DNA of 64,000 nucleotides, taken from contig CAWCKY010000006.1 in NCBI GenBank assembly GCA_963796275.1, forward strand, positions 2,688,001 through 2,752,000, read 5' to 3'. The notes below the pieces were generated by a model. The model did not search any database. It was given only the letters and a program-made list of their open reading frames with translations, and had not been told where the DNA came from. Below are positions 14,136-36,994 of the stretch, piece after piece. The translations under genes were made by a program, and so were the position numbers. The stretch comes from an uncultured Acidobacteriota bacterium. GTDB taxonomy: Bacteria; Acidobacteriota; Blastocatellia; RBC074. The first letter of the stretch is position 1; each line of letters begins with the position of its first letter.

Positions 14136-16103
14136 ATGGTCGAATCAACAATTTCGGAAAAGAGGTCTTTCAGCTCATTCAAGCAATGGTTATTAAAAGG
14201 TCAAGTTGAAGAGGTGGAAGGTCCGTACAAACGGGAGAGGAGTTCCCACAAGCACACCTGGTGGCAAGTCATGTGTTTAACCGGGGTCGATTATTTCTCG
14301 ACCCTCGGATATCAGCCGGGCATCGCCTTTCTGGCTGCCGGCGCCCTTTCTCCTATCGCGACTCTGATTCTCGTGCTCTTGACGCTCTTCGGAGCATTGC
14401 CGATTTACCGGCGTGTGGCGCAGGAGAGCCCGCACGGCGAGGGGTCGATCTCGATGCTCGAAGACCTGCTTCCCCGCTGGCGTGGCAAACTATTCGTGCT
14501 GGTTTTGCTGGGATTCGTCGCGACAGATTTCGTCATCACGATCACGCTTTCGGCGGCGGACGCGACCGCGCACGTGATCGAAAACCCGCTCGTCCCACAT
14601 TTTCTGCACAATCATCGGGTGGCGGTAACGCTCCTGCTGGTTGCCATCCTGGGCGGTATCTTTCTGAAGGGATTTAAGGAAGCGATTGGACTGGCGGTCT
14701 TACTGGTCGCCATCTATCTCCTGCTCAACTTAGTGGTGGTTGGCGTTGGACTTTATCAAATTCTGACTCATCCTCAAGTGCTCTCTGCCTGGAAGGAGGC
14801 GGTGTTTCAAATGCCCAAGGTCCATGGCAATCCGTTCCTGGCAGTGGCCGTCTCGTTATTGTTATTTCCCAAACTGGCCCTCGGTCTTTCCGGATTCGAG
14901 ACCGGGGTCGCTGTCATGCCTTTGGTCAAAGGCGATGTCCATGATGATCCCAAAAAACCTGCCGGCCGCATCCGCAATACTCATCGATTATTGCTGACCG
15001 CGGCTCTGATTATGAGCTTGATGCTGATCGCCAGCAGTCTGGTGACGACCATGCTGATCCCACCCGAGTTGTTTCAACCGGCGATTGGTGGTCGCCCGGC
15101 GGGAGATGCCAACGGGCGCGCGTTGGCCTATTTGGCTCATCTATATCTGGGGGAAGCCTTCGGCACGATCTATGATTTGAGCACGATTGCGATCTTATGG
15201 TTTGCCGGCGCTTCGGCTATGGCCGGCCTGCTCAATATCGTGCCGCGTTATCTGCCGCGCTATGGGATGGCCCCGGATTGGGCGCGAGCGACCAGACCTT
15301 TGGTCTTCGTCTTCACAGCCATTGCTTTTGCGGTGACCGTCATTTTTAAGGCCGATGTCGATGCGCAGGGAGGGGCATACGCGACCGGCGTGTTGGTGTT
15401 GATGACCTCTGCCGCCATCGCGGTGACGCTCTCCGTCTGGCGAGAGGGTGCGATCAGATGGGTCTTCTTATCGATCACTATTGTCTTCGGCTATACGACG
15501 ATTGCAAATATTATCGAGCGGCCGGAAGGCATCAAAGTGGCGGCCTTCTTTATCGGAGCTATTATCATTACTTCATTCGGTTCGCGAGCTCTGCGCTCAA
15601 CCGAGTTGCGCGTCGAGAGAGTCGAATTGAACCCCTCCGCCAAAGAATATATCGATGAAGCCAAGAAAGGCACCATCAGGATCATCGCCAACCGTCCTGA
15701 TCGCGGCGACCTAGATGAGTACCGCTTGAAAGAGAAGCAGGAGCGCTGGAACAACCACATCCCGGCCGACGACCCGGTGCTGTTCTTCGAGGTTAGGCCG
15801 GGGGATGCTTCGGATTTCTCCGATGTGCTCAGAGTGCGGGGGGTACAGATCGGGCCATACCGCATCTTACGCACAAAAAGCCCGGCCGTGCCGAACGCCA
15901 TCGCCGCCTTCCTGCTGCATGTTCGCGATGGGACGGAACAAATTCCACACGTCTATTTTGGTTGGACGGAAGGCAATCCATTCTGGTACGTGCTGAAATT
16001 CATCTTTTTCGGCGAAGGCGATACGGCTCCAGTCACACACGAAATTCTGCGACAGGGGGAGCCTGAGCCATCCCGGCGTCCGGCAGTCCATGTCGGCGGA
16101 TGA
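14136..16103 (+). CDS. APC-superfamily transporter, KimA/KUP-like probable K+ transporter
   Basis: About 12 TM segments; TM1 DYFSTLGY (D-x6-Y), TM3 TDFVIT, TM6 SGFE, TM10 AYATGV; soluble C-terminal domain. Confidence 0.8.
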
Positions 16104-16486
16104 GCAGCAGGTTCCGGTTCTATAACAGATTCGCAGGCGCGGGATCCAATTTCGGGACGATTGTTGACGCTGAGCTGATAGAGTTGTTTATTGCTCCAAT
16201 ATCGGCGCCGGGAGAGTGTGTGAGCCGAGGCGACCTCGGAGAAGGGAAGAAATAGCTATATGGACTCCTATTCAAACATCCAGGCTGCACATCGCGATAG
16301 GGAGAGAGGGAGATACAAGCTTCCGGCGCTGAGGGCAGCGCTCAGGGGAAGATTGTTCAATGGACTCATTACGGATGAGATGGCTGCGAAAGAACTTCTC
16401 AATTCCGACTGAAGTTCTTATGTGCAAAGTTTGACGCACATAACTCAACCCGGCGTCTGCTGCGGAAGATCGACAAGAAACGCCCG

Positions 16487-19087
16487 CTATGAGCTCTTTT
16501 GCTGTACTTTCTCTAATTGTGCAATGGCTTCAATTCGCTCCTGACCTGCCAGGTCCTGGGCCAGGCGCTGCAAGGCTACTGAGATGACCTCATTGTGGTG
16601 CAGGCTTTCGTTCTCGGGCGCGAGCTCCAGCCACAGTTTGTGGGTGAGTTCGATATCTTCGGGCGTGATCGTTGGCCGGTGGGCGCCGAGTTCGTAGATG
16701 CGCTCGGTTCCATCCGGAAAGACCAGTTTGAGAATGCGGAACTTCCGCTTTCGCTCGTCCTGGATATGCTCCCAGACATCGCCGACGCGCCTGGCCTGCT
16801 GGTTGGCTGACATCTTGGTCGACACTCCGGCGACTATTGTCAGGCACTCAAGCCGCACGGCCGTCATGACCGTCGCCCGAAAAGCATCGCTCGAAGGGAC
16901 CACCAGCGGCGTAATCTTCTTGCCGAGCTTTTCCGCGATGTCCATGGCTCTTGTGAAGAGAAGTTGCTCCTCATCGGTGAATCGTTCGCCGTCAGGCAGG
17001 CGCTCTTGCCCTGAGCCCTGCTTTTTCGGCACACGGACTGTCATGACGATGACATCCTGCACATTGGTATTCACCTCCGCCAGTACCTTTTTGAGATAGT
17101 GCAGGCCAGCGTAGTTATGGGCCGTGACCAGTATGCCGCCCGGGCGCACGGTGATCAGCGCGCGTGACACTTTATCTTCAGAAACGAGGTTGAATTTATC
17201 GAGTTCTGTGGCGGTCAAGCGGCGCCGCGTCGCCGACGGTGCGGCGTCTTCTATCGCCAACAGGGTGAAGGTGAATGCCGTGCCGCGATCGATCTGTGAC
17301 TGGACGCTGATCTGCCCGCCGTGCCCCTCGATCAGCCGCTTGGAGATGGCTAGCCCCAGGCCGCTGCCCGGAGATGCGCTGCCGGGAACGCGCACGAAGC
17401 GATGGAAGATACGGGGCAGATACTCAGGCGGAATGCCGCGGCCGGTGTCAACCACTGAAATTGCTATGTGATCATCCCTCGCTTCCGCCGAAACCTTGAT
17501 CTCACCGCCGCGCGGAGTGCTACGTTGCGCGTTGTCGATGAGTTCGGCGAGCACTCGCTTGATCTGTTCGCGATCGGCCAGAACTGCCGGTAGAGAAGGC
17601 GGCAGCTCGAGTTTTAATTCGAGATCCCTCGTTTCTACCTGTGGCCGGAGCGACTCGATCGTGGCCCCCAACAATTCGGCGATCTTGACCGGGGCCAGTT
17701 GCGGCGACCGTTCGCCCGATTCGATACGCGAAAGCTCGAGCAAATCCCGTCTCAGCCGCTCCCATCGCTCGACCTGTTCGCGGCTGTTGAGGAGGAGATC
17801 GCGTTGTTGATCGTTGAGCTCGCCAGCTGCACCTTCGATCAGGCAATGAAGGCTCATCTGTACCTCCCTGACCGGTTCCTCCAATTGCTCTGAAGCGATT
17901 GCAATGAATTCTGACTTGAGACGATCGACCTCTTTCAAATGAGTGATGTTCTCGAGCATGACCACTGTGCCCAGCAATCGTTTCTGATCATCACGCATCG
18001 GAGTAGTGCGTAAGCGATAAGCCTGTTCCGACCCGTTCAATGCGATGGGAATCGCGGTCGCAATACTCTCCCCGACGACGGGGCGTTGCCAGCTCAGGGC
18101 TTCAGAGACGGCCATTGCAATTCGATTGTTACCCGTGATCTCGGCCACGGGTTTGCCTATGTTTGCATCTTCCGGACCAAATATCCTTTCGGCGGCGGGG
18201 TTGAGCTTGGTAATTCGCCCTTGATTATCGGTTACCAGCACCGGATCGTAGAGCGAGTCGATGGTGGCTTCGGTCATGCGCTGTGCGATGATCAGCTTGC
18301 CCAGATCGGAGCGCCGTAACTGCTGGAGATGCTCTGCCATGCTGTTGAATTCGGTCGCCAGCGTGCCGATCTCATCGCGCGAAAGTATCTTCGCGCGCGC
18401 CTCCAGATCATCCTGCGCAATACTCGCCGCCGCTTTGGTCAACTCGCGCACGGGGCGGACGATGGCGTTGGCCATGAGCAGGGCGAGCGCGATTCCGGCC
18501 GCCACCAGGCCGCCCGCCATTAGCAGCGTGGCCATAAGAGAGCGCCGTGCGGCCCCAGCCGCCCGTCCCGATTTGGCCAGCATAGCTTCTCGATTGAGCC
18601 GCAGCAGATCATCACAATCGGAGCGCAACTGATTGTAGAGCGGATCGAGTTGGGAGAAATATCTTCCCTCTATCTGCCCCCGGGATGCGGCGGAAGCTGA
18701 CTTGATGTCGGCCAAAAAACTATCGGCGTATTGATAATAGGTGTCGCGGTCGCGGCGGATCGCTTCAATCACCTCAGGTTCTCGCGGCTCGGTGATGTTA
18801 TTGGCAGCTCGATTGAAGGCCGCATCGAATCGCTCCCGATATTGGCGTAGCTGCCTATACGCGCGCTCATCCCGGCCGGTCAATGCCAGGACTACAGCCG
18901 AATCCTGCCGCTCCAGGGCATCCTTCATATCTTCCGCGGCCACTACCGAATCGTAATTCTCAGTGACGATGAGCTGTGTCAGGTTACTCAACTCGCGAAA
19001 ATGCCAGACGCTCCACACGCCCAGCGCCACCAGAGCGGCGACAAATACCAGATATCCGATCAACAATTTAGCGCGTAGACTCATCAT
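16487..19087 (-). CDS. KinB-like membrane sensor (TM-4HB-TM-HAMP-PAS-DHp-HATPase) lacking the phospho-His, with ~240-aa Usp-like C-terminal extension
   Basis: H-box reads EFIAIASEQLEEP; G1 DTGRGI, F-box and G2 GSGLGLAI are intact. Start overlaps the stop of the upstream kdpD N-terminal gene. Confidence 0.85.
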   Translation of the reverse strand: MMSLRAKLLIGYLVFVAALVALGVWSVWHFRELSNLTQLIVTENYDSVVAAEDMKDALERQDSAVVLALTGRDERAYRQLRQYRERFDAAFNRAANNITEPREPEVIEAIRRDRDTYYQYADSFLADIKSASAASRGQIEGRYFSQLDPLYNQLRSDCDDLLRLNREAMLAKSGRAAGAARRSLMATLLMAGGLVAAGIALALLMANAIVRPVRELTKAAASIAQDDLEARAKILSRDEIGTLATEFNSMAEHLQQLRRSDLGKLIIAQRMTEATIDSLYDPVLVTDNQGRITKLNPAAERIFGPEDANIGKPVAEITGNNRIAMAVSEALSWQRPVVGESIATAIPIALNGSEQAYRLRTTPMRDDQKRLLGTVVMLENITHLKEVDRLKSEFIAIASEQLEEPVREVQMSLHCLIEGAAGELNDQQRDLLLNSREQVERWERLRRDLLELSRIESGERSPQLAPVKIAELLGATIESLRPQVETRDLELKLELPPSLPAVLADREQIKRVLAELIDNAQRSTPRGGEIKVSAEARDDHIAISVVDTGRGIPPEYLPRIFHRFVRVPGSASPGSGLGLAISKRLIEGHGGQISVQSQIDRGTAFTFTLLAIEDAAPSATRRRLTATELDKFNLVSEDKVSRALITVRPGGILVTAHNYAGLHYLKKVLAEVNTNVQDVIVMTVRVPKKQGSGQERLPDGERFTDEEQLLFTRAMDIAEKLGKKITPLVVPSSDAFRATVMTAVRLECLTIVAGVSTKMSANQQARRVGDVWEHIQDERKRKFRILKLVFPDGTERIYELGAHRPTITPEDIELTHKLWLELAPENESLHHNEVISVALQRLAQDLAGQERIEAIAQLEKVQQKSS

Positions 19088-20271
19088 CTCATCTCCGCCG
19101 ATCCCGTCTTCGTGGGTTCCTCTCCACCGGCTGCATCTTCGAGCGGCACCACCTGCACTGTTGCATTACGCACTTCGGATAAGAACCGATTGACGATCGA
19201 GCCGCGAAAAAGCATCTCCCAGCGTGAACGAGCCGTTTGGCCGAAGATGACATGCGTCACTCCTTCGCGCCGCGCATAGTCGATCAGCGCGTCGGCTACG
19301 CGGCTCCCTTTTAGCCTCACTACTTTGGCTCCCAGATCTTTAGCCAGTCGAATGTTTTCCTGCAGCGCGGCGTAATCTTGAGGGTCGATGCGGCCCGGCT
19401 CTTCGCTTGGCGTCTCGACGTAAACTGCATACCAATCCGAGGCGAGTTTGCCGGCGATGCGCGAGCCGATCCGCAGCAGACGTTTGGCGCTGCCGCGCGA
19501 AGCCATGCAGACCATAACCTTTTCGGGGATGACGGCGCATTCCAGCCCCTCGCGTTCGCGATAATCCTGGGCTTTCTCAGCCTGATCCTCTGCCAATTGC
19601 CGGAGCGCAAGCTCCCGCAGCGCTGAGAGATTGCCCTTACGAAAGAAGTTGCTGAGCGCCTGCTCGATCTTCTCGACGCCATAGATTTTACCTTGTCGCA
19701 GGCGCGTTCGCAGTGTGTCCACAGAAACATCCACATTGACGACTTCATCGGCCCGGCGCAGAAAACTGTCGGGAATCGTCTCGCGTACGCGCACCCCGGT
19801 CGTGCGTAGGATCGCATCATTGAGTGATTCGATGTGCTGAATATTGACCGCGGTGATCACCGAGATGCCGGCATCTAGCAGTTCGAGCACGTCCTCGTAG
19901 CGTTTATGGTTGTTCGAGCCGGGAACATTGGTGTGCGCCAGCTCATCGACAATCGCGATCTCCGGACGGCGAGCGATGACAGCATCCACGTCCATCTCTT
20001 CGAGCGTGACTCCACGGTACTCGATGCGCCGCAACGGAACTTGCTCAAGATCGCCGATCAGGGCAGCGGTCTCGGTGCGCCCGTGCGGTTCGACAAAAGC
20101 GATGAGGATATCGACGCCCTGTCGTTTAAGCAGATGCGCATCCTCCAACATCTGAAAGGTCTTTCCCACTCCCGCGGCCGCCCCGATGTAGACGCGCAGC
20201 CGCGCCTGCTCGCTCTCTTTGAGCTTGGAGAGCAGGGTTTCCGCCGATGGTCTGTCGCGATCGCTAATCAT
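19084..20271 (-). CDS. kdpD: KdpD N-terminal module (KdpD domain + Usp domain), no TM or kinase part
   Basis: LRVYIGAAAGVGKTFQML, VDELAHTN, KRYEDV, NIQHIESLND and FFRKGNLSALRELAL motifs, then a Usp domain. Start at MISDRDRP. Confidence 0.92.
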   Translation of the reverse strand: MISDRDRPSAETLLSKLKESEQARLRVYIGAAAGVGKTFQMLEDAHLLKRQGVDILIAFVEPHGRTETAALIGDLEQVPLRRIEYRGVTLEEMDVDAVIARRPEIAIVDELAHTNVPGSNNHKRYEDVLELLDAGISVITAVNIQHIESLNDAILRTTGVRVRETIPDSFLRRADEVVNVDVSVDTLRTRLRQGKIYGVEKIEQALSNFFRKGNLSALRELALRQLAEDQAEKAQDYREREGLECAVIPEKVMVCMASRGSAKRLLRIGSRIAGKLASDWYAVYVETPSEEPGRIDPQDYAALQENIRLAKDLGAKVVRLKGSRVADALIDYARREGVTHVIFGQTARSRWEMLFRGSIVNRFLSEVRNATVQVVPLEDAAGGEEPTKTGSAEMR

Positions 20272-20290
20272 TTTTGCTTCGCATCCGTTT

Positions 20291-20830
20291 TTAATAGAAT
20301 GACCCGGTTTCATCTCCATGTGCAAGTAGCAAATCCTCGACCCAATCGCGCAAAATGTCGAGCGACCGAATGACGCCGAGCAGTTGTTTATCCTCATTGA
20401 TGACAGGCAACTCGTCAATCCCCGCCCGGTACAGGGCCCGCATCGCATCAGTGATGGTCTGCCGGGCCTGCAGCGGATGGTGGTTTGTTTCAATAAGCGA
20501 GCTGGCGGGAGATTTCGCCACGTCTTTACCCAGGTGTAACAACTTGGTCGTCGTATGCGCGTGCTGATCTACATACAGGCCAGGGTCGAGGTGCGCAAAA
20601 ACCTCTTGCGCCAGCCGGCCCTCGGTAATGGCGCCGAGGTAGCAACCCTCGTCGTCTACGACATAGACTATTCGCGGGATGGTTGAGCCGACTGCCAATT
20701 TTGCCACGTGTAAAACATCATCGCCCGCGCGAGCCACCGGAGGAATAGGCGCGGGCGATCGCGTGGCGAGATAGCGGGCTAAGGGCCATCCGCCACGGCT
20801 GAGTCGTAATTTGGGGCGCTTTCCAGACAT
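20291..20830 (-). CDS. Stand-alone CBS-pair protein
   Basis: IVYVVDDEGCYLGAIT and LPVINEDKQLLGVIRSLDIL CBS motifs; located between kdpC and kdpD. Confidence 0.8.
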   Translation of the reverse strand: MSGKRPKLRLSRGGWPLARYLATRSPAPIPPVARAGDDVLHVAKLAVGSTIPRIVYVVDDEGCYLGAITEGRLAQEVFAHLDPGLYVDQHAHTTTKLLHLGKDVAKSPASSLIETNHHPLQARQTITDAMRALYRAGIDELPVINEDKQLLGVIRSLDILRDWVEDLLLAHGDETGSFY

Positions 20831-20844
20831 AAACCACGAACAGA

Positions 20845-21420
20845 TTATTTAGAGCGCGGGAACTTACTATCCAGGTCTAGGTTCAACTCCAGCACGTTGA
20901 CCACGGGTTCACCCAGAAATCCGAACTGCCGGCCCTGGGTGTGCGCGGCCACAACCTGGCGGACCTCGCCCTCGTTCACCCCGCGCTCGCGCGCCACCCG
21001 GGGCACCTGAAACTCAGCCGCCGCAGGCGAGATGTGTGGGTCGAGCCCGGAACCGGAAGTGGTAACCAGATCGACTGGAATTGGTTTGCCGGGGTTCTCG
21101 GCCTGCAGCTTCTCGACATCGGCCTTGACCCGGTCAATCAATTTCTTGCTGGTCGGGCCGAGATTCGAGCCGGAAGATGAGCCCGCATCATATCCGACTG
21201 CGCCCGCCGCCGATGGCCGCGAGCGAAAGTATCCCGGCGACGAAAACGGCTGCCCGATGATCCGCGAGCCGATAACCTGACCGTTGCTCTCGATCAATTG
21301 TCCGTTCGCCTTGTCGGGAAAGATCACCTGAGCCAGCCCGGTGACGACCAGCGGGTAGATCAACCCTAGAATAATAGTCGTCACGATTGTCATCAAAATT
21401 GCTGTTACGAAGTTTTTCAT
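20845..21420 (-). CDS. kdpC: K+-transporting ATPase subunit C
   Basis: [40 protein letters not shown] and [11 protein letters not shown] motifs. Confidence 0.96.
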
Positions 21421-21444
21421 ATGCAAATCTCTTTTCACCACTGT

Positions 21445-22929
21445 TTACTGTTCTCTGGTAGTGAAGAAATAGCTCACACCCACGAGGAATGTGTTCTGAT
21501 TCTGCCTCGATAATCCATTAAAGTTAGTGAAGAACGGCTGATTCGAGAAGTCGCGCCGGAATTCAAATCGCGTGAGGAGGTTGTTCAACAGCTTCAATTC
21601 CTGCGTCAGCGTGATGTCCTTGATCGTCTGCGCTCGGCCGGTCCTCAAACCACCTCTGTCGTTGAAGACCTCAAAACGGGGTGAGAACGCTAACCGATTG
21701 TTGAATGCGCATTTGAGATATCCCGCAAAACCAGTCCAATAATTGCGATTCCCGAAATTATCTCCGTCATTGCCGTAAACGAAGTTCCCCAGCAACGTCA
21801 CCTTGTCGGTCGCATAATAGGTAACCACCGAGTCGAAGATATTCCGCCAGTTGTCTCTCAATGAGACATCTGGCACGTTCGCCAGCGGCGCCTCCTGTCC
21901 GCCCAGATAGGTCCCCGTGATCGCAAACTTCTTCGACGGCGTCAGACCCAGCTGAAAACCTATCGTCTTGCCCGCCGATCTCCGATCGAAATTGTTCTCG
22001 AACAGGTTATCCCAGCCGTTCACCAGGAAGCCGGTCAATGCCACCTTGTCGCTGACCGCATACTTCGTCCGCAAACCCGCGTGATAAAACGGCCCATAGA
22101 GGAAGAGCAGCCCGCGCGAATAGTTGAAGTTGTCTTTAGTCTCGACCACTTCCGCCCCGACCGGCGTGTAGAACTTGCCGAAATCCAGCGTCAACCCGCT
22201 CCCCAGCGGCGCCACGTAACTGGCATAGGCTTGCAGGACGTGTTTGGTCGCGTCGTTGCGGCTCGAGTCGCTGACCGAGACGAAGCGATCGACCGTCTCG
22301 CCCAGACCGAGGTCGGCCCGGAAACCGAGCGGGCTCTCCTTGGAGTTCTTGCGCTCCAGCGTCAGCTTGGCCAGTTGCAGGCTGAAGGCGTTATGGCGCA
22401 CGTCGAAGACGCGGCCCTGCGTGAACATATCGACCTGGTTATTGTTGTAGCCGTAGTAGCCATCGACGACGCCGCTGACTTCGACGCTGCGGAAGAAGTT
22501 GATGAAGGATTCGTTCTTCTTGGATTCGTCCTTCATATCCTGGACCTCTTTTTTGATCTCATCGATCGCGTCGGCTTTAACTTCACTACTCTTAATTTCA
22601 TTTTCCGTCTTCGCAGTGACCGATGGTGTCTCTCCGCTGAGCCTGGCGAGTTTCTCCTCGAGCATCCTGATGCGCTCTTCGAGCGCTTCAATCATCTTGG
22701 CATTCTCCGCCGTGTCGGTTTTTGCGTCCGCTTTGCTCTCCGTTATTCCTTTCTTTTCTTTTGACTTCGACTCCTTTTCAGATTTAGCACTGGTTTCGTC
22801 ATTTAACTGCTTTGCAAATGCCACATCGTTCATAGCGGCAGTCAGCATCAGCACGGAGGCTGAGAATAAGACCAGCGCCATTAAGGATTGCCGGAACAAA
22901 GCGTTGTTAATTGAGATTTGTAAAAGCAT
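21445..22929 (-). CDS. Outer-membrane beta-barrel putative porin (BBP2/DUF1597-like), copy 1
   Basis: Signal peptide and coiled coil, then VDGYYGYN, QAYASY, GKFYTPVGAE, NFNYSRG, NGWD and RFEFRRD motifs. Confidence 0.8.
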   Translation of the reverse strand: MLLQISINNALFRQSLMALVLFSASVLMLTAAMNDVAFAKQLNDETSAKSEKESKSKEKKGITESKADAKTDTAENAKMIEALEERIRMLEEKLARLSGETPSVTAKTENEIKSSEVKADAIDEIKKEVQDMKDESKKNESFINFFRSVEVSGVVDGYYGYNNNQVDMFTQGRVFDVRHNAFSLQLAKLTLERKNSKESPLGFRADLGLGETVDRFVSVSDSSRNDATKHVLQAYASYVAPLGSGLTLDFGKFYTPVGAEVVETKDNFNYSRGLLFLYGPFYHAGLRTKYAVSDKVALTGFLVNGWDNLFENNFDRRSAGKTIGFQLGLTPSKKFAITGTYLGGQEAPLANVPDVSLRDNWRNIFDSVVTYYATDKVTLLGNFVYGNDGDNFGNRNYWTGFAGYLKCAFNNRLAFSPRFEVFNDRGGLRTGRAQTIKDITLTQELKLLNNLLTRFEFRRDFSNQPFFTNFNGLSRQNQNTFLVGVSYFFTTREQ

Positions 22930-23065: not shown

Positions 23066-25124
23066 TCATGCCAGACCGAGCGCGACGATAATCACGTCAA
23101 TGATCTTGATGCCGATGAACGGCACGATGATTCCGCCTAACCCGTAGATCAACAGATTGCGACGCAACAACGCCGCTGCGCTCATCGGGCGATATTTCAC
23201 GCCTCTGCAGCGCGAGCGGAATAAGCGCGATGATGATCAGCGCGTTGAAGATCACGGCTGAGAGAATCGCCGACTGCGGCGTCGCGAGCCCATAATGTTC
23301 AGCGCATTCATGACCGGAAAGGCGGCCGAGAACATCGCCGGGATGATCGCGAAGTATTTCGCCACGTCGTTAGCAATCGAGAAGGTCGTCAAGGCGCCGC
23401 GCGTCATCAGCAACTGCTTGCCGATCTCTACGATCTCGATCAGCTTGGTCGGATTGGAGTCGAGATCGACCATGTTGCCGGCTTCTTTCGCGGCCTGCGT
23501 GCCGGTGTTCATCGCCACGCCAACATCGGCCTGCGCCAGCGCCGGCGCATCGTTTGTTCCGTCGCCGGTCATCGCTACCAGCTTGCCGCCGGCCTGCTCG
23601 TGCTTGATCAGCGCCATCTTGTCTTCCGGCGTTGCTTCGGCCAGAAAATCGTCAACTCCAGCTTCGCGCGCGATCGTGGCCGCCGTGAGCGGATTGTCGC
23701 CGGTGATCATGACGGTCTTAATGCCCATCTGCCGCATCTGATTGAAGCGCTCGCTCATTCCGCCCTTGACGATGTCTTTCAGATGAATGACGCCGAGCGG
23801 GTGCCCGTCTGTCGGCGACCACCAGCGGGGTGCCGCCCGCCTTGGAGATCCGCTCGACGATCTCGCGCATCTCCTTAGGCGCATGCCCGCCATTGAAGCC
23901 AAGGTATTTCTCAATCGCGTCGGCTGCGCCTTTGCGAATCCTCGCGCCCGTCGAAGTCAACGCCTGACATCCGCGTCTGCGCGGTGAAGGGAATGAAGTG
24001 CGCTTCGTGCGGTTGAAGCTCTCGCCCGCGCAGTCCATACTTCTCTTTCGCCAGCACGACGATCGAACGGCCCTCCGGAGTTTCGTCGGCGAGCGACGAG
24101 AGTTGCGCAGCATCGGCCAGTTCGTTTTCGGTCACGCCGTGTAGCGGTATGAATTCGGTCGCCTGCCGATTGCCGAGCGTGATCGTGCCGGTCTTGTCCA
24201 GCAGCAGCGTGTTGACGTCGCCCGCCGCTTCGACCGCGCGGCCCGACATCGCCAGCACGTTGTGCTGAATCAGCCGGTCCATGCCCGCGATGCCGATGGC
24301 AGAGAGCAGGCCGCCGATGGTCGTCGGAATCAAACAGACGAGCAGCGAGACGAGCACAAAGATTGTCTGCGGCGCGCTTGAATAGATCGCGAACGGCTGC
24401 AGGGTGACGACGGCGAGCAGGAAGATGATCGTCAGGCCCGCGAGCAGGATATTGAGCGCGATCTCGTTCGGCGTCTTTTGTCGTTCCGCGCCTTCGACCA
24501 GCGCGATCATGCGGTCGATGAAGGTTTCGCCCGGATTCGAAGTGATCCGAACTTTGATCTGATCAGACAATACGCGCGTTCCGCCGGTGACGGCTGAGCG
24601 GTCGCCTCCCGCTTCACGAATCACCGGGGCCGACTCGCCCGTGATCGCCGATTCATCAACCGAGGCGACGCCCTCGATGATCTCGCCGTCGCCGGGAATG
24701 AACTCGCCTGCCGAAACAACTACGATATCGTCTTTTCGCAGCTTGCGGCGCAGGTACCGTTTCGTGTCTGCCCATCAGGCAGCAGCTTGTGCGCTGTGGT
24801 CTCGGTCTTGGCCTTGCGCAGGTTGTCGGCTTGCGCTTTGCCGCGCCCTTCGGCCATCGCCTCGGCGAAGTTGGCAAACAGCACCGTGAACCAGAGCCAG
24901 AGCGTGATCTGCAACTCGAACCCGATGCTCGGCGCTCCGGATCGGCGCAATGATCCGCGAATGAGCAGGAGGGTCGTGAAAACGCTGCCGACCTCGACGA
25001 CGAACATGACCGGGTTCTTCATCATCGTGCGCGGGTTCAGCTTGCGGAAACGACATCGACCGATTGCTCGGGTCAGATGATCTTTCGGTATCCCAAATCG
25101 AAATTGTCCTTTTCGTTTAGCCAT
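23066..25124 (-). CDS. kdpB: K+-transporting P-type ATPase subunit B (multiple indels: sequencing error or pseudogene)
   Basis: [59 protein letters not shown] and [11 protein letters not shown] spread over several ORF fragments. Confidence 0.93.
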
Positions 25125-25157
25125 AGTTTTCTCAAATTTCAACAGTCAGACACAAGT

Positions 25158-26989
<1,832 letters not shown>

Positions 26990-28823: not shown

Positions 28824-30422
28824 TTACCACGCGCCTTTTTTGCGACCGAACCACCAGACCAATCCGAGCGTCGCGGTATTCTGCTCCTTCTTCAACACGC
28901 CGGGTGTGTCAGTCAAGAAGAACGGCCTGTTGGACCAATCGCGCCGGTACTCGCCACGCATCAGGAATACTTCGTTGAACTTATATTCCGCTGTCAATGT
29001 GATCTCTTTTAAGTCCTGGTCCACGCCAGTGAACAATGATCCCCCATCATCCGACGGGTTATCTCCAACGTATTCGAATCGCCCGGCCAATGCGAAGCCT
29101 TGTGGGAGCTGATAGCGCGCGTAAGCCACACCGCCATTGATGCGCGATGGCGACGAGTTGCTGAAGGCACGGTTGATCACGTAATCGCCTTCGAATGCGA
29201 ACGTCAGTTTGTCGGTCATATTGAATGTGGCATAGGCATCGAGGATGTGGATGCGGCCGTTTTGCTCGGGCTGGACCTCATTGGGCGAAAGCCCTGGCTG
29301 CGTCGGCAGGACCGGGAAGGTCGGGTTGAGTATCGAAGTTCGCACTCGCCCTTCCTTGCCGGCGTAATAATTCGCCTGCGCTGTGATGCGGCTCGTGGGC
29401 TTATATGTCAGCAATACTGCCTGTGACTTCCAGGCGTTGAAATCCTCGCTCTGGTTAATGCCGTTAACCAGCCAGTAGGTCGATGTGAGCTTGTCACCTA
29501 TGGGATAAGCCGATCGGAAGCCGAAATGATAAAATGGCAAAATGGCGAACCAATAAGATCGACTGTAATTGAAGTTGTCCTTGGTGTAATTCGTCTCGTA
29601 ACCGAGCGCGCTTGCGAATTTCCCGAAATCAGTCGTCAATCCGTTTCCGAGCGGGGCGACATATGTTCCGTATGCCTGCCACACGTGGCGGAAGACCTGC
29701 GGGCGCAGCTCATTGACCGCGCTGCCCTGCAGGGTCTCGGTCGCCTGGCCGAAGATCAGATCGAGTCGCGCTCCGAACCTGCGTCCCTCTTCAACTTTAG
29801 GCGCGTGCTCTAAGATCACACCTGCCTGGTTCAGGCTGAACGTGTTGCTCTCCACATCGTAAGCGCGCAATAGATTGATGCCGCCGAGCGGGCGGTTGAA
29901 GTTGTATCCGTAATAACCGTCGACCGTCATGTTGACCGTAGTGTCGCGCCAGAAATCCAGCACCTCGCGATCATCTGTAGATAGAGCAGGCTTTTGTGCC
30001 TGAGACGGCGCCGCCTCACCGGACGCTGACGCCAGCCCTGCCGCGGGCGCGATCTTCTCCGCTTCGAGCTGGCTGATACGCGCTTCCAGCCGTTCGATCG
30101 ATTGCCGCATCTGGCGCATCTCTTCGAGCAGTTCCGCGTTATCCATACCATCCTTAGCCATCTCATTGGCTGCTATACCTCTCTTTTCATCTGCCGTACC
30201 AGTCTTGGAAACATTGCTGGCGACACCCCATTGGGTTTGTGCGCGCGTCGGTGCCTGTGCGATCGCGACCGGTCCCGACGGCAGAACCAATGCCAACCCC
30301 AGCGCGATGCCCCGGAGGAAGGATATGTACACGTCGCTCCCGCTGGACAACGACATGGTTTTCTTACTCAATTTATCGCTCTTCCAATAAAACAGGCCCT
30401 CAACTCGCAGTTGTCTGTCCAT
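28824..30422 (-). CDS. Outer-membrane beta-barrel putative porin (BBP2-like), copy 2
   Basis: VDGYYGYNFN, WQAYGTY, GKFASALGYE, NFNYSRS, PFYHFG and RGEYRRDWS motifs; coiled coil; C-terminal Trp. Alternative start 30356. Confidence 0.8.
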   Translation of the reverse strand: MDRQLRVEGLFYWKSDKLSKKTMSLSSGSDVYISFLRGIALGLALVLPSGPVAIAQAPTRAQTQWGVASNVSKTGTADEKRGIAANEMAKDGMDNAELLEEMRQMRQSIERLEARISQLEAEKIAPAAGLASASGEAAPSQAQKPALSTDDREVLDFWRDTTVNMTVDGYYGYNFNRPLGGINLLRAYDVESNTFSLNQAGVILEHAPKVEEGRRFGARLDLIFGQATETLQGSAVNELRPQVFRHVWQAYGTYVAPLGNGLTTDFGKFASALGYETNYTKDNFNYSRSYWFAILPFYHFGFRSAYPIGDKLTSTYWLVNGINQSEDFNAWKSQAVLLTYKPTSRITAQANYYAGKEGRVRTSILNPTFPVLPTQPGLSPNEVQPEQNGRIHILDAYATFNMTDKLTFAFEGDYVINRAFSNSSPSRINGGVAYARYQLPQGFALAGRFEYVGDNPSDDGGSLFTGVDQDLKEITLTAEYKFNEVFLMRGEYRRDWSNRPFFLTDTPGVLKKEQNTATLGLVWWFGRKKGAW

Positions 30423-32551: not shown

Positions 32552-33247
32552 TTATGCCCCCGGATCGAAGCGGTAACCAGTCCAGGGTTCGGTGAGAACA
32601 TAGCGAGGATGGGCAGGATCAGGTTCGATCTTCTTGCGTAAGTGGCCGACAAAGACGCGCAGATATTCGTTCTGCTCGACATAGTCGCCTCCCCAGATAG
32701 CGCCGAGCAGTACCCTATGACTCAGCACTTTATTTGGGTGGCGAATAAGATAGAGCAACAATTCGTATTCTTTGGGTGTCAGGTGGACCTCTTGCCCCTG
32801 CACGGTCACGTTACGGGTCTGGATATCTACGCGAAAGTCTCCCACTTCAATCGACCGCTCTTCGGGGCCGGCCAACTGAGGTCGCCGAAGGACCACCCGC
32901 ACACGCGCCAGCAGTTCATCCATGCCGAAAGGTTTGGTCACATAGTCGTCAGCCCCGGCGTCCAGGGCCTCAACCTTGATTCGTTCTTCGCCCTTAGCCG
33001 AGAGTACGATAATCGGGACTGAAGAGATGGCTCTCAATCGCCGGCAGAGTTCAAGCCCGCTCATATTCTGCATAACGAGGTCGGTCACGACGACATCGGG
33101 TTTCCAGACGTCGAAAGCAGAAAGCGCTTCTTCGCCCTCAAATGCCACCTGCACGTCATAACCGTGGCTCGATAGGCCGCGCCGCAGTACGCGTGTGATC
33201 TGAGGCTCGTCATCGACCACGAGAATCCGTCGCCCTTCATTCGTCAT
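32552..33247 (-). CDS. kdpE: OmpR-family response regulator KdpE
   Basis: [31 protein letters not shown] and [27 protein letters not shown] motifs; overlaps the upstream kinase gene. Confidence 0.92.
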
Positions 33248-34523
33248 GTTCCCTCCAGGTATTGAATCCATAAGTGATATCTTCTGCTTGCGAATCGATC
33301 CCGCCTACCGCATTCTCCACTGTAGCGGGGTGCTCTTCGTCTCCGATCGGCAAGGTGAAGACCACGCGTACGCCATACCCTCGTGAGCCATCTTCTATCC
33401 AAATGTTTCCGCCGTGGGCATCAACGATGCCACGGGCGATGGCCAGCCCCATTCCGATTCCAGATGGGCGGTTTAGCGCAGCTGCATAATCGGGCGTGGC
33501 GCGGAAGAACTTATCGAAGACGCGCTTCCGCAGATGCTGCGGGATCCCCCACCCCTCGTCTTCGACGGCGATCTGAACCATCTCGTCAGACGCCCGGCTC
33601 GCGTTGATTCTGATGCGTGTACCGGGAGGCGCATATTTGGTCGCATTGTCGATCAGCAGGTAGACGACTTCGGTCACCGCGCGCGCATCGATCTGCACCA
33701 GCGGCAAATCGTTTTCTACCTCAACCACTACTCGATGCTGCTGTACGAGCGGTTCAGCGCGGTCGAGGGCCATTGAGATGATCTCATCGACGGCCCCCCA
33801 CCTTCGTCGCAAATGAAGGTCTCCGGCTTCGATCCGCGCCAGCTCAACCATGCCTTCGATGAAGCGGTTGAGCCGATCAGCTTCTTCGTCTATCACTTCT
33901 AACATCTCCTGCCGCCCTTCTTCGTCGAGTTTGACGGGAGGTTCTCCGTCCCACTTTGCGCGCCGCTCTTTGAGAAGAGTCGTGACCGATGCCTTGATCG
34001 AAGTGAGCGGCGTGCGCAGGTCGTGTGTGACTGCGTCGAGCAGCGCCGACTTCAACTGTTCGCTTCGCCGCAACGCCTCGGCATGACTCGCTCGCTCGAA
34101 TGCCGCTTGCAGTTCGTGATAGAGCCGTTCGATCTGCTGGCGCCCGCCCTCGGCCTCCTCTGCGCGGCGTTTAGCCCGCGCTGAAAGTTGCCCGACGGTG
34201 ACCGCAGTTACGAGGAATGCGAAGAGCGCAACCCAGTTCTGCGAATCGGCGATCGTTAAGGTATAGAGAGGGGGGAGGAAAAAGTAGTTGAAGCACAGCA
34301 TCCCAAGCAACGAGGCGAGATAGGCTGGCCGACTGCCCCAGCCGGTCGCGATGAAGAGCACTGCCAGTAGTAATGAGAAGGCCACCGTCGTCGAGTTGAT
34401 TTGCTCTTGAAACGGCGCAAAACAGGCCGTGACGCCTGCAACACTCAACGCAGCGAAAAAGTATCCGGCTGCTCTATTCTGAAAGATAATGGTTGACATG
34501 CTCTCTTCAAGCCATCTGACCAT
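33237..34523 (-). CDS. kdpD: KdpD C-terminal module: DUF4118 4-TM + HisKA + HATPase
   Basis: [26 protein letters not shown]; intact H-box [18 protein letters not shown]; DNATKY and GIGMGLAI. No KdpD, Usp or GAF domain. Confidence 0.88.
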
Positions 34524-35297: not shown

Positions 35298-36719
35298 TTA
35301 GTCGGAGGGGAGGATCGTGACCAAGCCGCCCTCGATCAATCTCGAGCGGGTCTGCCAATAGAAGAACGCGTTGTGGTTGTTGTTCGGGTCGTGGATCTGG
35401 GTCCATTGGTACGCGCCACCGCAGCCGGCGCCGACGAAGACGTTCCACCCCTGCTGGATGGCGTGGTCGTCACCGTCGAAGTACCCGGGGTGCTTGCAGA
35501 CGCCGACGACCTGGATCTGCGGGTTGACCGCTGTTTCTCCGTCCGGGCACGCAGCGTTGATGCTGTATAGCGGAGTCGAGCCCCGATAGGGGACAGGTGA
35601 CGCGGTTGCTTGCGTACCCTGCATGTCGACGCGATATGCGTTTGCAAAGAGCATCTCGATCAGCCTGGCTTTCGCGTTGGTGATCGCCGCCGCGTGGTTC
35701 GGGTCGCTCGCGCTGGTGATCGCTCCGTGGCAGTAGGAACCGTAGTTTCTACCGTAGGCAACGGTGTAAGTTTGCCCCCGCGTAGGCGTCATATTCAGGC
35801 CTTGAATAAGGGGGCTCGCCTGGGCGGCGTATGGTAGGGCGCCGTCGCTTTCGCCAGTCCAGAGCGCGGGTGAGCAGCTGCTATAGGAGATGAGCCCGAG
35901 GGCACGTTTGTACTGCGCAACCCAGTCGGCTGCAGCCACGCCGCTGATATTTCCAGCGTACTCGCACCAACCGTTGCCTGGCGCGGAGGCGTTGCCGAAG
36001 AAGGCGATCGCGTCGCCGTTCTTACACGTGGTGACGAAATCGGACGAACCTACGACGTTGTACTTACTCGGCTGGAGCCCGTCGATCATGCCCTGGATCG
36101 AGACAACTGCGGCTATCTTGTTCTGTACGCCCCAGTCATATGTCCCGACGCCAGCCGGCCCCGTGTTGGAGGCGACCTCGAAGGCCACCCGTGCGCCGGT
36201 GCTGTGGCCGATCAGGATGATGTTCTTGGCGGTGGATGGGAAGAGCCGGTTGATCTCTTGGGCCAGGCGATAGCGCCACTCGTATGCGGTAGTACAGGGA
36301 TCACCCTGCTTGGTTGTGGCGCAGCCGGGGTCGCCGACCTCCCAGTCGTCCATGTGCGTTGGGCCGAGCGAGTCTGTCGGGTGGTAGGGCGAGGCCGGCG
36401 TCGTATAGAGATTGGCCGTAGCGCTCGCGACGTTGATCGTGACGCCCGGATGCGCCGCCTGGTAGTTCGAAATCCAGGTCGGGATGTCGGCTTCGATTGA
36501 GTTCTTCAAATCTGCCAGGGAGTTGGCCGCAATGATGCGGGACGCGCCGTCATTCTTTACGCCGTGAACGTACAAGAAGTTGAGCTGGATGACGCCGGTC
36601 GTTACCGAATTCGAGGACGCGCCGATCGACGGCTGTCCCTCTTTGTTGGCCGCCACGCTCATAGTACTCGCCAGCAATGCGACTGTCCCCAAGAGAGCAA
36701 ACGCTCTACTTCTACGCAT
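35298..36719 (-). CDS. Secreted Cys-rich alpha/beta hydrolase (lipase-like)
   Basis: Signal peptide; FLYVHG oxyanion motif, LIGHSTG nucleophile, SDG acid, YCHG His candidate; extra C-terminal domain. Confidence 0.7.
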   Translation of the reverse strand: MRRSRAFALLGTVALLASTMSVAANKEGQPSIGASSNSVTTGVIQLNFLYVHGVKNDGASRIIAANSLADLKNSIEADIPTWISNYQAAHPGVTINVASATANLYTTPASPYHPTDSLGPTHMDDWEVGDPGCATTKQGDPCTTAYEWRYRLAQEINRLFPSTAKNIILIGHSTGARVAFEVASNTGPAGVGTYDWGVQNKIAAVVSIQGMIDGLQPSKYNVVGSSDFVTTCKNGDAIAFFGNASAPGNGWCEYAGNISGVAAADWVAQYKRALGLISYSSCSPALWTGESDGALPYAAQASPLIQGLNMTPTRGQTYTVAYGRNYGSYCHGAITSASDPNHAAAITNAKARLIEMLFANAYRVDMQGTQATASPVPYRGSTPLYSINAACPDGETAVNPQIQVVGVCKHPGYFDGDDHAIQQGWNVFVGAGCGGAYQWTQIHDPNNNHNAFFYWQTRSRLIEGGLVTILPSD

Positions 36720-36994
36720 ATCTCTCCTCCGTTCTTTCCCCAAGATATCCATCAATATTCTTTGCTGTCTTTATAATGCGAACCAAGGATAAGGCTGCAA
36801 TCCTAACAGACGTTGTAGAGTCGGGTGATGAAACTACAAAAGAACTTCATATAGAAGAAGATTCACTGCTATGTCCAGGAGCATTGGGGGGCGTGTTTTC
36901 CACAACTGCCGAGCTATCAAACCGTGAACATGCTCGGTTTTAAGGTCACGTTTCGGCTCTTTTAGTCATTTACTGAATTCACCGCGGTCAAATA

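Follow-up and report, generated by a model that had tools for sequence, protein, structure and literature searches.

A kinase-like protein without its phospho-acceptor histidine, encoded beside kdpD-N in the kdp operon of an uncultured acidobacterium

What does a membrane sensor kinase do once the histidine at the centre of its chemistry has gone? The question is raised by a gene in a 64,000-nucleotide stretch (hereafter the window) of contig CAWCKY010000006.1, assembly GCA_963796275.1, from an uncultured member of the Acidobacteriota. There, immediately after kdpD-N in a kdp gene cluster, lies an open reading frame (ORF) for P0001, a protein with the layout of a sensor histidine kinase in which glutamate (Glu400) occupies the phospho-acceptor position. 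Pseudo-histidine kinases of this kind are known from a few single cases; here one orthologous group at one operon position holds canonical kinases with a regulator beside many independent descendants that lack the histidine and keep the ATP site. Because canonical and His-less forms coexist in this one group, it offers a natural series for asking what role a histidine kinase has after the loss of phosphotransfer. The locus also bears on a point left open by the 2024 work on KdpD, namely how short KdpD/Usp serine kinases without membrane sensors learn of potassium or turgor, to which a dedicated membrane partner encoded beside KdpD-N would be a testable answer. In the open-access literature searched, we found no description of a kdp-linked, His-less HAMP-PAS kinase family, of its repeated loss of the histidine or of the permease-tail fusion that P0001 carries.

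A histidine kinase layout without the histidine

P0001 combines a periplasmic four-helix bundle behind a first transmembrane (TM) helix, a second TM helix at about residues 183–209 (hydrophobic stretches read from the sequence), HAMP and PAS domains, a dimerization and histidine phosphotransfer (DHp) domain, a catalytic and ATP-binding (CA) domain and a long C-terminal tail (Table 1). Glu400 of its degenerate H-box, ASEQLEEP, aligns with the histidine of orthologues that read ASHELRTP, and P0001 cannot use the canonical histidine since none is present. The motifs of the ATP site are all in place (N box LIDNA, G1 DTGRG, F HRFVRVP, G2 GSGLG). The E/DxxT/N phosphatase motif, as an excerpt of PMC12963549 defines it, is absent from P0001, QLEEP following position 400. 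A Pfam scan found neither the KdpD N-terminal domain nor DUF4118 in the protein, and the KdpD equivalog NF007793 matched the kinase core alone, with 100 bits against a cut-off of 1123; by its domain content, P0001 is not a KdpD. In its own genome (9.46 Mb in 7 contigs, 94.7% complete) P0001 has no close paralogue, the next best protein being 29–36% identical.

The start codon of the gene (ATG, 19087-19085) overlaps the kdpD-N stop codon (TGA, 19086-19084) as ATGA. An initial annotation of this DNA had already described an unbroken 866-aa frame overlapping the kdpD-N stop, a Glu codon at 17888-17890 within ASEQLEEP in place of ASHELRTP, and intact ATP-binding G boxes; all of this stands, and the strand, which had not been given, is minus (19087 to 16487).

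Since the assembly holds frameshift errors elsewhere, corroboration of Glu400 by other homologues matters. A search with P0001 yielded 2291 homologues at E ≤ 0.001 among 8000 scored candidates, and the best 120 were examined. They fall into 23 long, tailed proteins (810–874 aa, 56–100% identical, P0001 included) and 97 short ones (596–667 aa). Not one of the 23 long proteins has His at the position (17 have Glu, four Ala, one Ser and one Thr); of the short ones, 65 read ASHEL..., 21 read AAH[HYF]L... and 11 are without His. Among the long homologues from other sources, twelve share ASEQLEEP letter for letter, so that Glu400 is not a sequencing slip, and the earlier view that it is no indel artefact is confirmed.

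Repeated loss among kdp-linked orthologues

We then surveyed the acidobacterial class by searching 401 species-representative genomes with P0001 (the unpublished genomes G004 and G296 are in the tally) and fetching 67 loci, which with the window give 68 kdp-linked orthologues (loci are labelled L and families f below). The position is His in 25 of them, Ser in 12, Ala in 10, Glu in five, Arg in five, Gly in four, Gln in three, Asn in two and Thr and Phe in one each, so that 43 of the 68 are without His. Loss of the histidine is much wider than the initial annotation supposed, and its pairing of that loss with the fusion of a tail does not hold, 36 of the 43 His-less orthologues being tail-less. 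The replacements are Glu, Ala, Thr or Ser in the tailed clade, and Ser, Ala, Gly, Arg, Gln, Asn or Phe in the other His-less orthologues. No complete row lacks the N, G1 or F box, and G2 is altered in two only (L044, L080); L083 is aberrant or truncated across G1–G2, and L107 is cut at G2 by the contig end.

A maximum-likelihood (ML) tree of the orthologue core, with the H-box columns removed, requires at least six changes between His and non-His; it comes from a quick ML search in which 18 of 65 inner branches are unsupported. On this tree, the histidine has been lost repeatedly within the orthologous group. Canonical SHELRTP is essentially limited to family f3, plus one row from the window's own genus. 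One locus (L069:2473-4365, plus strand) reads ATSELRTPL, with Ser for His as the only change in an otherwise canonical H-box, and looks like a recent loss.

Wherever the canonical H-box has been lost, the adjacent response regulator is missing too. Of the 18 His-bearing f3 rows, 14 (16 by locus order) have a REC-domain gene immediately after the kinase gene; its product joins REC to an output domain of about 130 aa without a Pfam match and is not a KdpE-type DNA binder (e.g. L054:9845-10588, plus strand). The sole f3 row to have lost the histidine (L077) is also without this REC regulator. No row of f1, f6 or f9, His-bearing or not, has a REC gene directly after the kinase-like gene, and one f6 row (L088) has a KdpE-like gene beyond an intervening kdpD-N. 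In the window no REC gene flanks the P0001 ORF, and an f3 query for the output domain of this REC-X regulator found nothing in the window's genome, which is 94.7% complete. The association of regulator and histidine is suggestive, not statistical, because the rows are related to one another.

Pairwise Nei–Gojobori ratios of nonsynonymous to synonymous substitution (dN/dS) for the core are 0.05–0.15 in 11 His-less pairs versus 0.07–0.13 in four His-bearing pairs, and the six His-less pairs in which core dS stays below 1 give 0.04–0.24 for DHp and 0.03–0.15 for CA. Three pairs give 0.07–0.19 for the tail, rough values, with dS near or above 1 there; in the comparison with the nearest genome the core stands at 0.15 and the tail at 0.19. 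Purifying selection acts on every domain of the gene, which is not decaying. The possibility of decay or of a strain-specific fusion, which the initial annotation had kept as an alternative, is contradicted by these core ratios and by the His-less state of every long homologue. Judged by sequence, P0001 is a pseudo-histidine kinase, with the histidine kinase architecture kept, the histidine replaced and this state under selection; the term names a functional class, not a homology family.

A tail shared with permeases

About 255 residues follow the HATPase_c domain, close to the 240 first reported, and what we treat as the tail is the segment of 242 residues from protein residue 625. No Pfam family matches the residues after HATPase_c even at E 10, the Usp profile PF00582 included. 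The tail is 57–63% identical (E 1e-93 to 1e-104; 65% in the alignment) to the C-termini of ORFs with an AA_permease_2 domain, which bears out the initial suggestion that it resembles the C-terminus of kdp-linked acidobacterial APC permeases. Tail-matching permeases number five rows among 41 genomes and 21 among 401; their frames span 745–839 aa, with three shorter ones at contig ends, and in one donor-type ORF Pfam places AA_permease_2 at residues 33–505 with the tail after it. One such permease adjoins a DUF4118 kinase and kdpE on the same contig as a tailed pseudokinase. An exhaustive, profile-free search with the tail returned 682 cluster representatives at E ≤ 0.001, a single one of the best 150 being the kinase fusion. 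Fifteen representatives were scanned for domains: nine match an amino-acid-permease profile (two of these MgtE_N as well), five match MgtE-type domains only, these being fragments or the 1174-aa P0159, and one matches no family.

An AlphaFold2 model of the tail (31 aligned sequences; mean pLDDT 91.6, pTM 0.84) has a Usp fold. Model residues 22–170 match the Usp protein 3qtb (VIA Z 12.3, rmsd 3.2 over 121 aligned residues), Usp proteins make up 15 of the 16 top VIA rows (the remaining one is QueC), and there are further matches to the c-di-AMP-bound Usp domain of KdpD (7ji4, Z 10.6) and to the C-terminal domain of KCC-1 (6vw9, Z 7.7); the top Foldseek match is the corresponding domain of KCC1 (7aip, E 2.3e-4). 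The Usp-like character claimed for the tail at the outset is upheld by its predicted fold. Model residues 177–242 form a small helical unit. The same alpha/beta fold is thus common to the P0001 tail, to Usp domains such as that of KdpD and to the C-termini of SLC12 transporters, and, as in SLC12, the donors of the tail are APC-fold permeases with a Usp-like cytoplasmic C-terminus. Unlike known Usp domains, the tail has no Pfam match, lacks two ligand motifs and carries the helical subdomain, of 65 residues, as an extra. It represents a regulatory domain of a transporter re-used on a signalling protein.

The two motifs, as given in a portion of PMC4686210, are G-X2-G-X9-G(S/T) for ATP in Usp proteins and SXS-X20-FTAXY, needed for c-di-AMP binding by Staphylococcus aureus KdpD. 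The first is absent from the tail, which reads AGVSTKMSANQQARRVGD (G-x-S-x12-G), and so is the second, the corresponding stretches being VTAHNYAG (with AHNYAG as the beta1–alpha1 loop) and VIVMTVRV (with VIVMTVR as beta2). Nearly invariant G130, S132, G145 and W148 (numbering of the 242-residue segment) mark a conserved loop, which, from its sequence, could hold some ligand. As for KimA, a phmmer search of PDB sequences with the tail produced matches to unrelated chains only, at E ~1, the donor-type permease as phmmer query yielded nothing at E ≤ 0.001, and KimA is not among the fold matches listed for the tail model, an absence that does not exclude kinship of fold. The donor-type permease has no NCBIfam family.

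The fusion occurs in six of the 401 genomes, from three genera, five of them from other species and all five with the same operon position. A separate tail-bearing permease is also encoded in those five genomes and is missing from the window's genome, in which no second copy of the tail was found. In the tail tree, all 17 kinase tails fall in a single clade (SH-aLRT 99) inside a starred clade with f1 permease tails, apart from the f6 permease tails, which points to a single fusion event with a donor of the f1-permease type. The core tree places the tailed proteins in a single clade of seven rows; one of these (L052) is tail-less and probably represents a later loss of the tail. L052 itself (G228:C277) is 608 aa long with Ala at the His position, and about 1.4 kb downstream of it lie an OmpR-type regulator and a DUF4118-type kinase.

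A different use of the tail domain was seen in four of its homologues. In all of them (P0159, P0154, P0167 and P0185) MgtE_N, CBS and the MgtE channel domain come after the tail, which in P0159 occupies residues 489–719; P0167, a fragment, also has a permease part ahead of the tail. The arrangement suggests an APC permease joined to a magnesium channel by way of the tail domain.

The neighbouring KdpD-N

Of the 67 fetched loci, 65 have the orthologue next to kdpD-N and two end at a contig edge, and both genes lie on the same strand as neighbours in all 63 loci where both were called. The gap between them is at most 4 nt in 16 of these 63 loci and at most 30 nt in 18 more. The order is kdpC, kdpD-N, kinase in families f1 and f3, and kdpC, kinase, kdpD-N in f6 and f9, where an APC permease with the tail domain often follows.

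The window's KdpD-N has as its best NCBIfam match the 'KdpD-like non-kinase potassium sensor'. Translation probably begins at the ATG at 20271 (as called mechanically, the ORF extends to 20493), and the Walker A-like sequence of the protein is GAAAGVGKT; a Walker A-like G-x5-GK[ST] is found in 62 of 62 orthologues, with D109/E110 invariant. According to an excerpt of Silberberg et al. (2024; PMC11018627), the N-terminal domain of KdpD is an atypical serine kinase that inactivates KdpB in Escherichia coli and Deinococcus, short KdpD/Usp chains exist without the membrane domains that sense K+, c-di-AMP can drive such chains, and in split KdpD systems a KdpD/Usp serine kinase chain is accompanied by a separate TM/GAF/DHpCA kinase. 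The window resembles these split systems in having a stand-alone KdpD-N/Usp gene downstream of kdpC and a separate DUF4118-HisKA-HATPase kinase with KdpE. Unlike the split systems as that excerpt describes them, it has P0001 as a third component, which is without a KdpD, DUF4118 or GAF domain.

Proposed role of P0001

We propose that P0001 is an ATP-binding membrane pseudo-histidine kinase of the Kdp regulon that relays signals to Kdp regulators by protein contact, and we put the probability of this reading at roughly 0.55. P0001 would no longer hand phosphate to a response regulator and would act through protein contacts, relaying a periplasmic or membrane signal by way of its four-helix bundle, HAMP and PAS domains. 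Its most likely target would be the neighbouring, translationally coupled KdpD-N serine kinase, and a second possible target the DUF4118 kinase/KdpE pair, which would control transcription and is encoded about 14 kb from the P0001 gene. In the tailed clade, the Usp-like tail may contribute either a cytoplasmic input of the transporter type or contact to the permease. Structure prediction of a complex between KdpD-N and the tail returned 'no answer' (score 0.00), which weighs neither way.

Several points weigh against this proposal. The adjacency and translational coupling to KdpD-N are circumstantial, and KdpD-N is a partner that we infer from them. A KdpD domain is present in 197 of the 401 genomes (a tally that includes unpublished G004, G296 and G357) and a match to the P0001 kinase core at E ≤ 1e-90 in about 70, so that KdpD-N works without a P0001-like protein in most genomes; on these counts, the P0001 family is an accessory of KdpD-N and not an obligate partner. 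The assignment of His as the ancestral state at every node of the core tree depends on the quick ML search, made without an outgroup. The Usp ATP motif and the KdpD c-di-AMP motif are both missing from the tail. Finally, a pure scaffold does not explain the intact ATP site, which could mean that catalysis is retained.

A role by contact has parallels in DivL of Caulobacter crescentus, which has Tyr in place of the histidine, and PsmA of Streptomyces venezuelae. Like P0001, both have the layout of a histidine kinase with PAS, with the histidine replaced and the replacement conserved in relatives, and both are thought to signal by protein contacts rather than by phosphotransfer; the likeness is one of function, and no kinship of sequence is claimed. 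PsmA, too, is described in an excerpt of PMC12963549 as lacking the D/ExxT/N phosphatase motif. Unlike DivL and PsmA, P0001 sits in a transporter operon and bears a transporter-derived Usp tail, and its group has lost the histidine many times, with sister lineages that keep a canonical kinase. Another parallel is RetS, a kinase-like protein that regulates a second sensor kinase by heterodimerization, its own histidine not being needed and its conserved residues being kept. P0001 differs in having lost the conserved histidine, and mixed dimers are here only a hypothesis.

A wider scenario may be sketched, although we hold it unlikely in its entirety. The P0001 family would be the missing membrane sensor of the stand-alone KdpD-N: an ancestral kinase with a REC-X regulator would repeatedly have turned into a His-independent, ATP-binding sensor that gates the phosphorylation of the KdpB serine, control shifting from phosphorelay to protein–protein contact, and one clade would have captured the Usp domain of a co-regulated permease, such that pump and permease answer the same cytoplasmic signal.

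Alternative explanations

The alternative that survives best, which we nevertheless find doubtful, is that P0001 is still catalytic, its CA domain phosphorylating something other than its own residue 400, for example the histidine of the DUF4118 kinase in a mixed dimer, or, in the manner of GHKL-type protein kinases, a Ser/Thr of a partner. Nearly all 43 His-less orthologues retain the N, G1, F and G2 boxes, the CA domain of His-less pairs shows dN/dS values as low as those of His-bearing pairs, and a canonical histidine kinase with the H-box THDLRTP is at hand some 14 kb away; but that kinase owns a complete CA domain and so needs no donor.

Less probable again is the model of the initial annotation, in which Glu400 mimics phosphohistidine and P0001 is a DivL-like scaffold whose tail binds c-di-AMP and which modulates the DUF4118 kinase. 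In its favour, Glu is the commonest residue of the tailed forms (17 of 23), the genome encodes one diadenylate cyclase, and the tail shares the fold of the c-di-AMP-binding Usp domain of KdpD. However, Ala, Thr or Ser stands in for Glu in six of the 23 tailed forms and a still wider range of residues in the tail-less ones, and because the residue at the His position varies in this way, within and outside the tailed clade, Glu is not a conserved phosphomimic, contrary to what had been suggested. The absence of SXS-X20-FTAXY from the tail and the failure of phmmer to detect similarity to KimA also count against this model. One part of it, the DUF4118 kinase as a partner of P0001, may hold.

Autophosphorylation on another DHp residue seems very improbable. 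The candidate is His413, 13 residues downstream of position 400 (MSLHC) and present in most orthologues; the same histidine, though, is also found in the canonical His-bearing forms, and position 413 is Tyr or Phe in nine of the 68 rows, including four of the seven of the tailed clade. His413 was rejected as an alternative acceptor on this 68-row alignment.

That the gene is a functionless relic or a chimeric assembly artefact is hardly credible: frame breaks do occur in kdpA, kdpB, rpoB and rpoC of the same assembly, but the P0001 ORF shows no break, the tailed form is known in full length from 22 further homologues of other sources (56–88% identity), five genomes of other species have the same fusion in the same place, and dN/dS against the nearest genome is low in core and tail alike.

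The kdp locus and its assembly

On the minus strand, the genes of the locus follow one another in the order BBP2 porin, kdpA, kdpB, second BBP2 porin, kdpC, CBS-domain ORF, kdpD-N and the P0001 gene.

Table 1. Features of P0001 and of the kdp locus, in positions of the window.
Feature	Positions	Strand	Basis or remark
Pseudo-histidine kinase P0001, whole ORF	16487..19087	minus	866 aa + stop, unbroken
P0001 N-terminal sensor: TM1 and periplasmic four-helix bundle 4HB_MCP_1, residues 2-167	18587..19084	minus	Pfam E 2.6e-7
P0001 HAMP, residues 204-256	18320..18478	minus	Pfam E 1.3e-15
P0001 PAS (PAS_4), residues 271-385	17933..18277	minus	Pfam E 5.9e-12
P0001 HisKA/DHp PF00512, residues 391-458, degenerate H-box ASEQLEEP	17714..17917	minus	30.5 bits vs cut-off 26.9
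GAG codon of Glu400, phospho-acceptor His position	17888..17890	minus	Codon read and alignments
P0001 HATPase_c (CA) PF02518, residues 505-609	17261..17575	minus	E 1.1e-28; N, G1, F, G2 boxes intact
Usp-fold part of tail, protein residues 646-794	16706..17152	minus	AlphaFold2 model, VIA, Foldseek
Small helical subdomain of tail, protein residues 801-866	16490..16687	minus	AlphaFold2 model; weak match, Z 7.5 to 5ytp
kdpD-N, stand-alone KdpD domain + Usp, no kinase core	19084..20271	minus	NF038185 E 3e-129
CBS-domain ORF, 179 aa as called, between kdpC and kdpD-N	20291..20830	minus	Pfam
kdpC	20845..21441	minus	Pfam
kdpB, several frames in assembly	23069..25133	minus	Pfam, tblastn
kdpA, several frames in assembly	25161..26989	minus	Pfam, tblastn
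KdpE-type OmpR-family response regulator	32552..33271	minus	Pfam, NCBIfam
DUF4118-HisKA-HATPase kinase (KdpD C-terminal type), canonical H-box THDLRTP	33237..34523	minus	Pfam, NCBIfam

By tblastn, the reading frame changes some nine times over the roughly 4 kb of kdpA and kdpB, never at a long homopolymer. rpoC and rpoB (G000:C6:1266086-1274588) were each recovered as several separate matches, some with in-frame stops, and contigs of relatives (mostly 90–95% identity) lack a single base at each of two kdpA break sites, 26446 and 26950. The breaks in kdpA and kdpB are most likely indel errors of the assembly in conserved genes. The reading in which kdpA and kdpB are true pseudogenes, with the P0001 gene a relic among them, was set aside as less likely, given that rpoB and rpoC of the same assembly also come out in pieces. 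Since indel errors are likely, other broken genes of this genome need to be read with caution.

Rfam gave no matches in the window, and no c-di-AMP riboswitch was seen on that account; a scan for promoters and terminators over 16000-21600 found fewer sites than in shuffled sequence. Among the sequencing runs, only small shares were matched, in soil and plant metagenome contigs, with no RNA source among those listed.

Some neighbouring genes deserve mention. CBS pairs often bind adenine nucleotides, and a homologue of the window's CBS-domain ORF lies at the same place in locus L058. The two BBP2 (OmpL-like) porins are encoded at 21445-22929, between kdpB and kdpC, and at 28824-30422, upstream of kdpA; fetched relatives have the upstream porin alone. 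An ORF of 485 aa (35298-36755, minus strand), upstream of the DUF4118 kinase, belongs to no Pfam or NCBIfam family, and the same is true of a 655-aa ORF (14136-16103, plus strand) that is convergent with the P0001 gene. In L099 and L100 the tail-bearing permease gene is followed by a homologue of the latter (638 and 679 aa), and these genes may share a neighbourhood.

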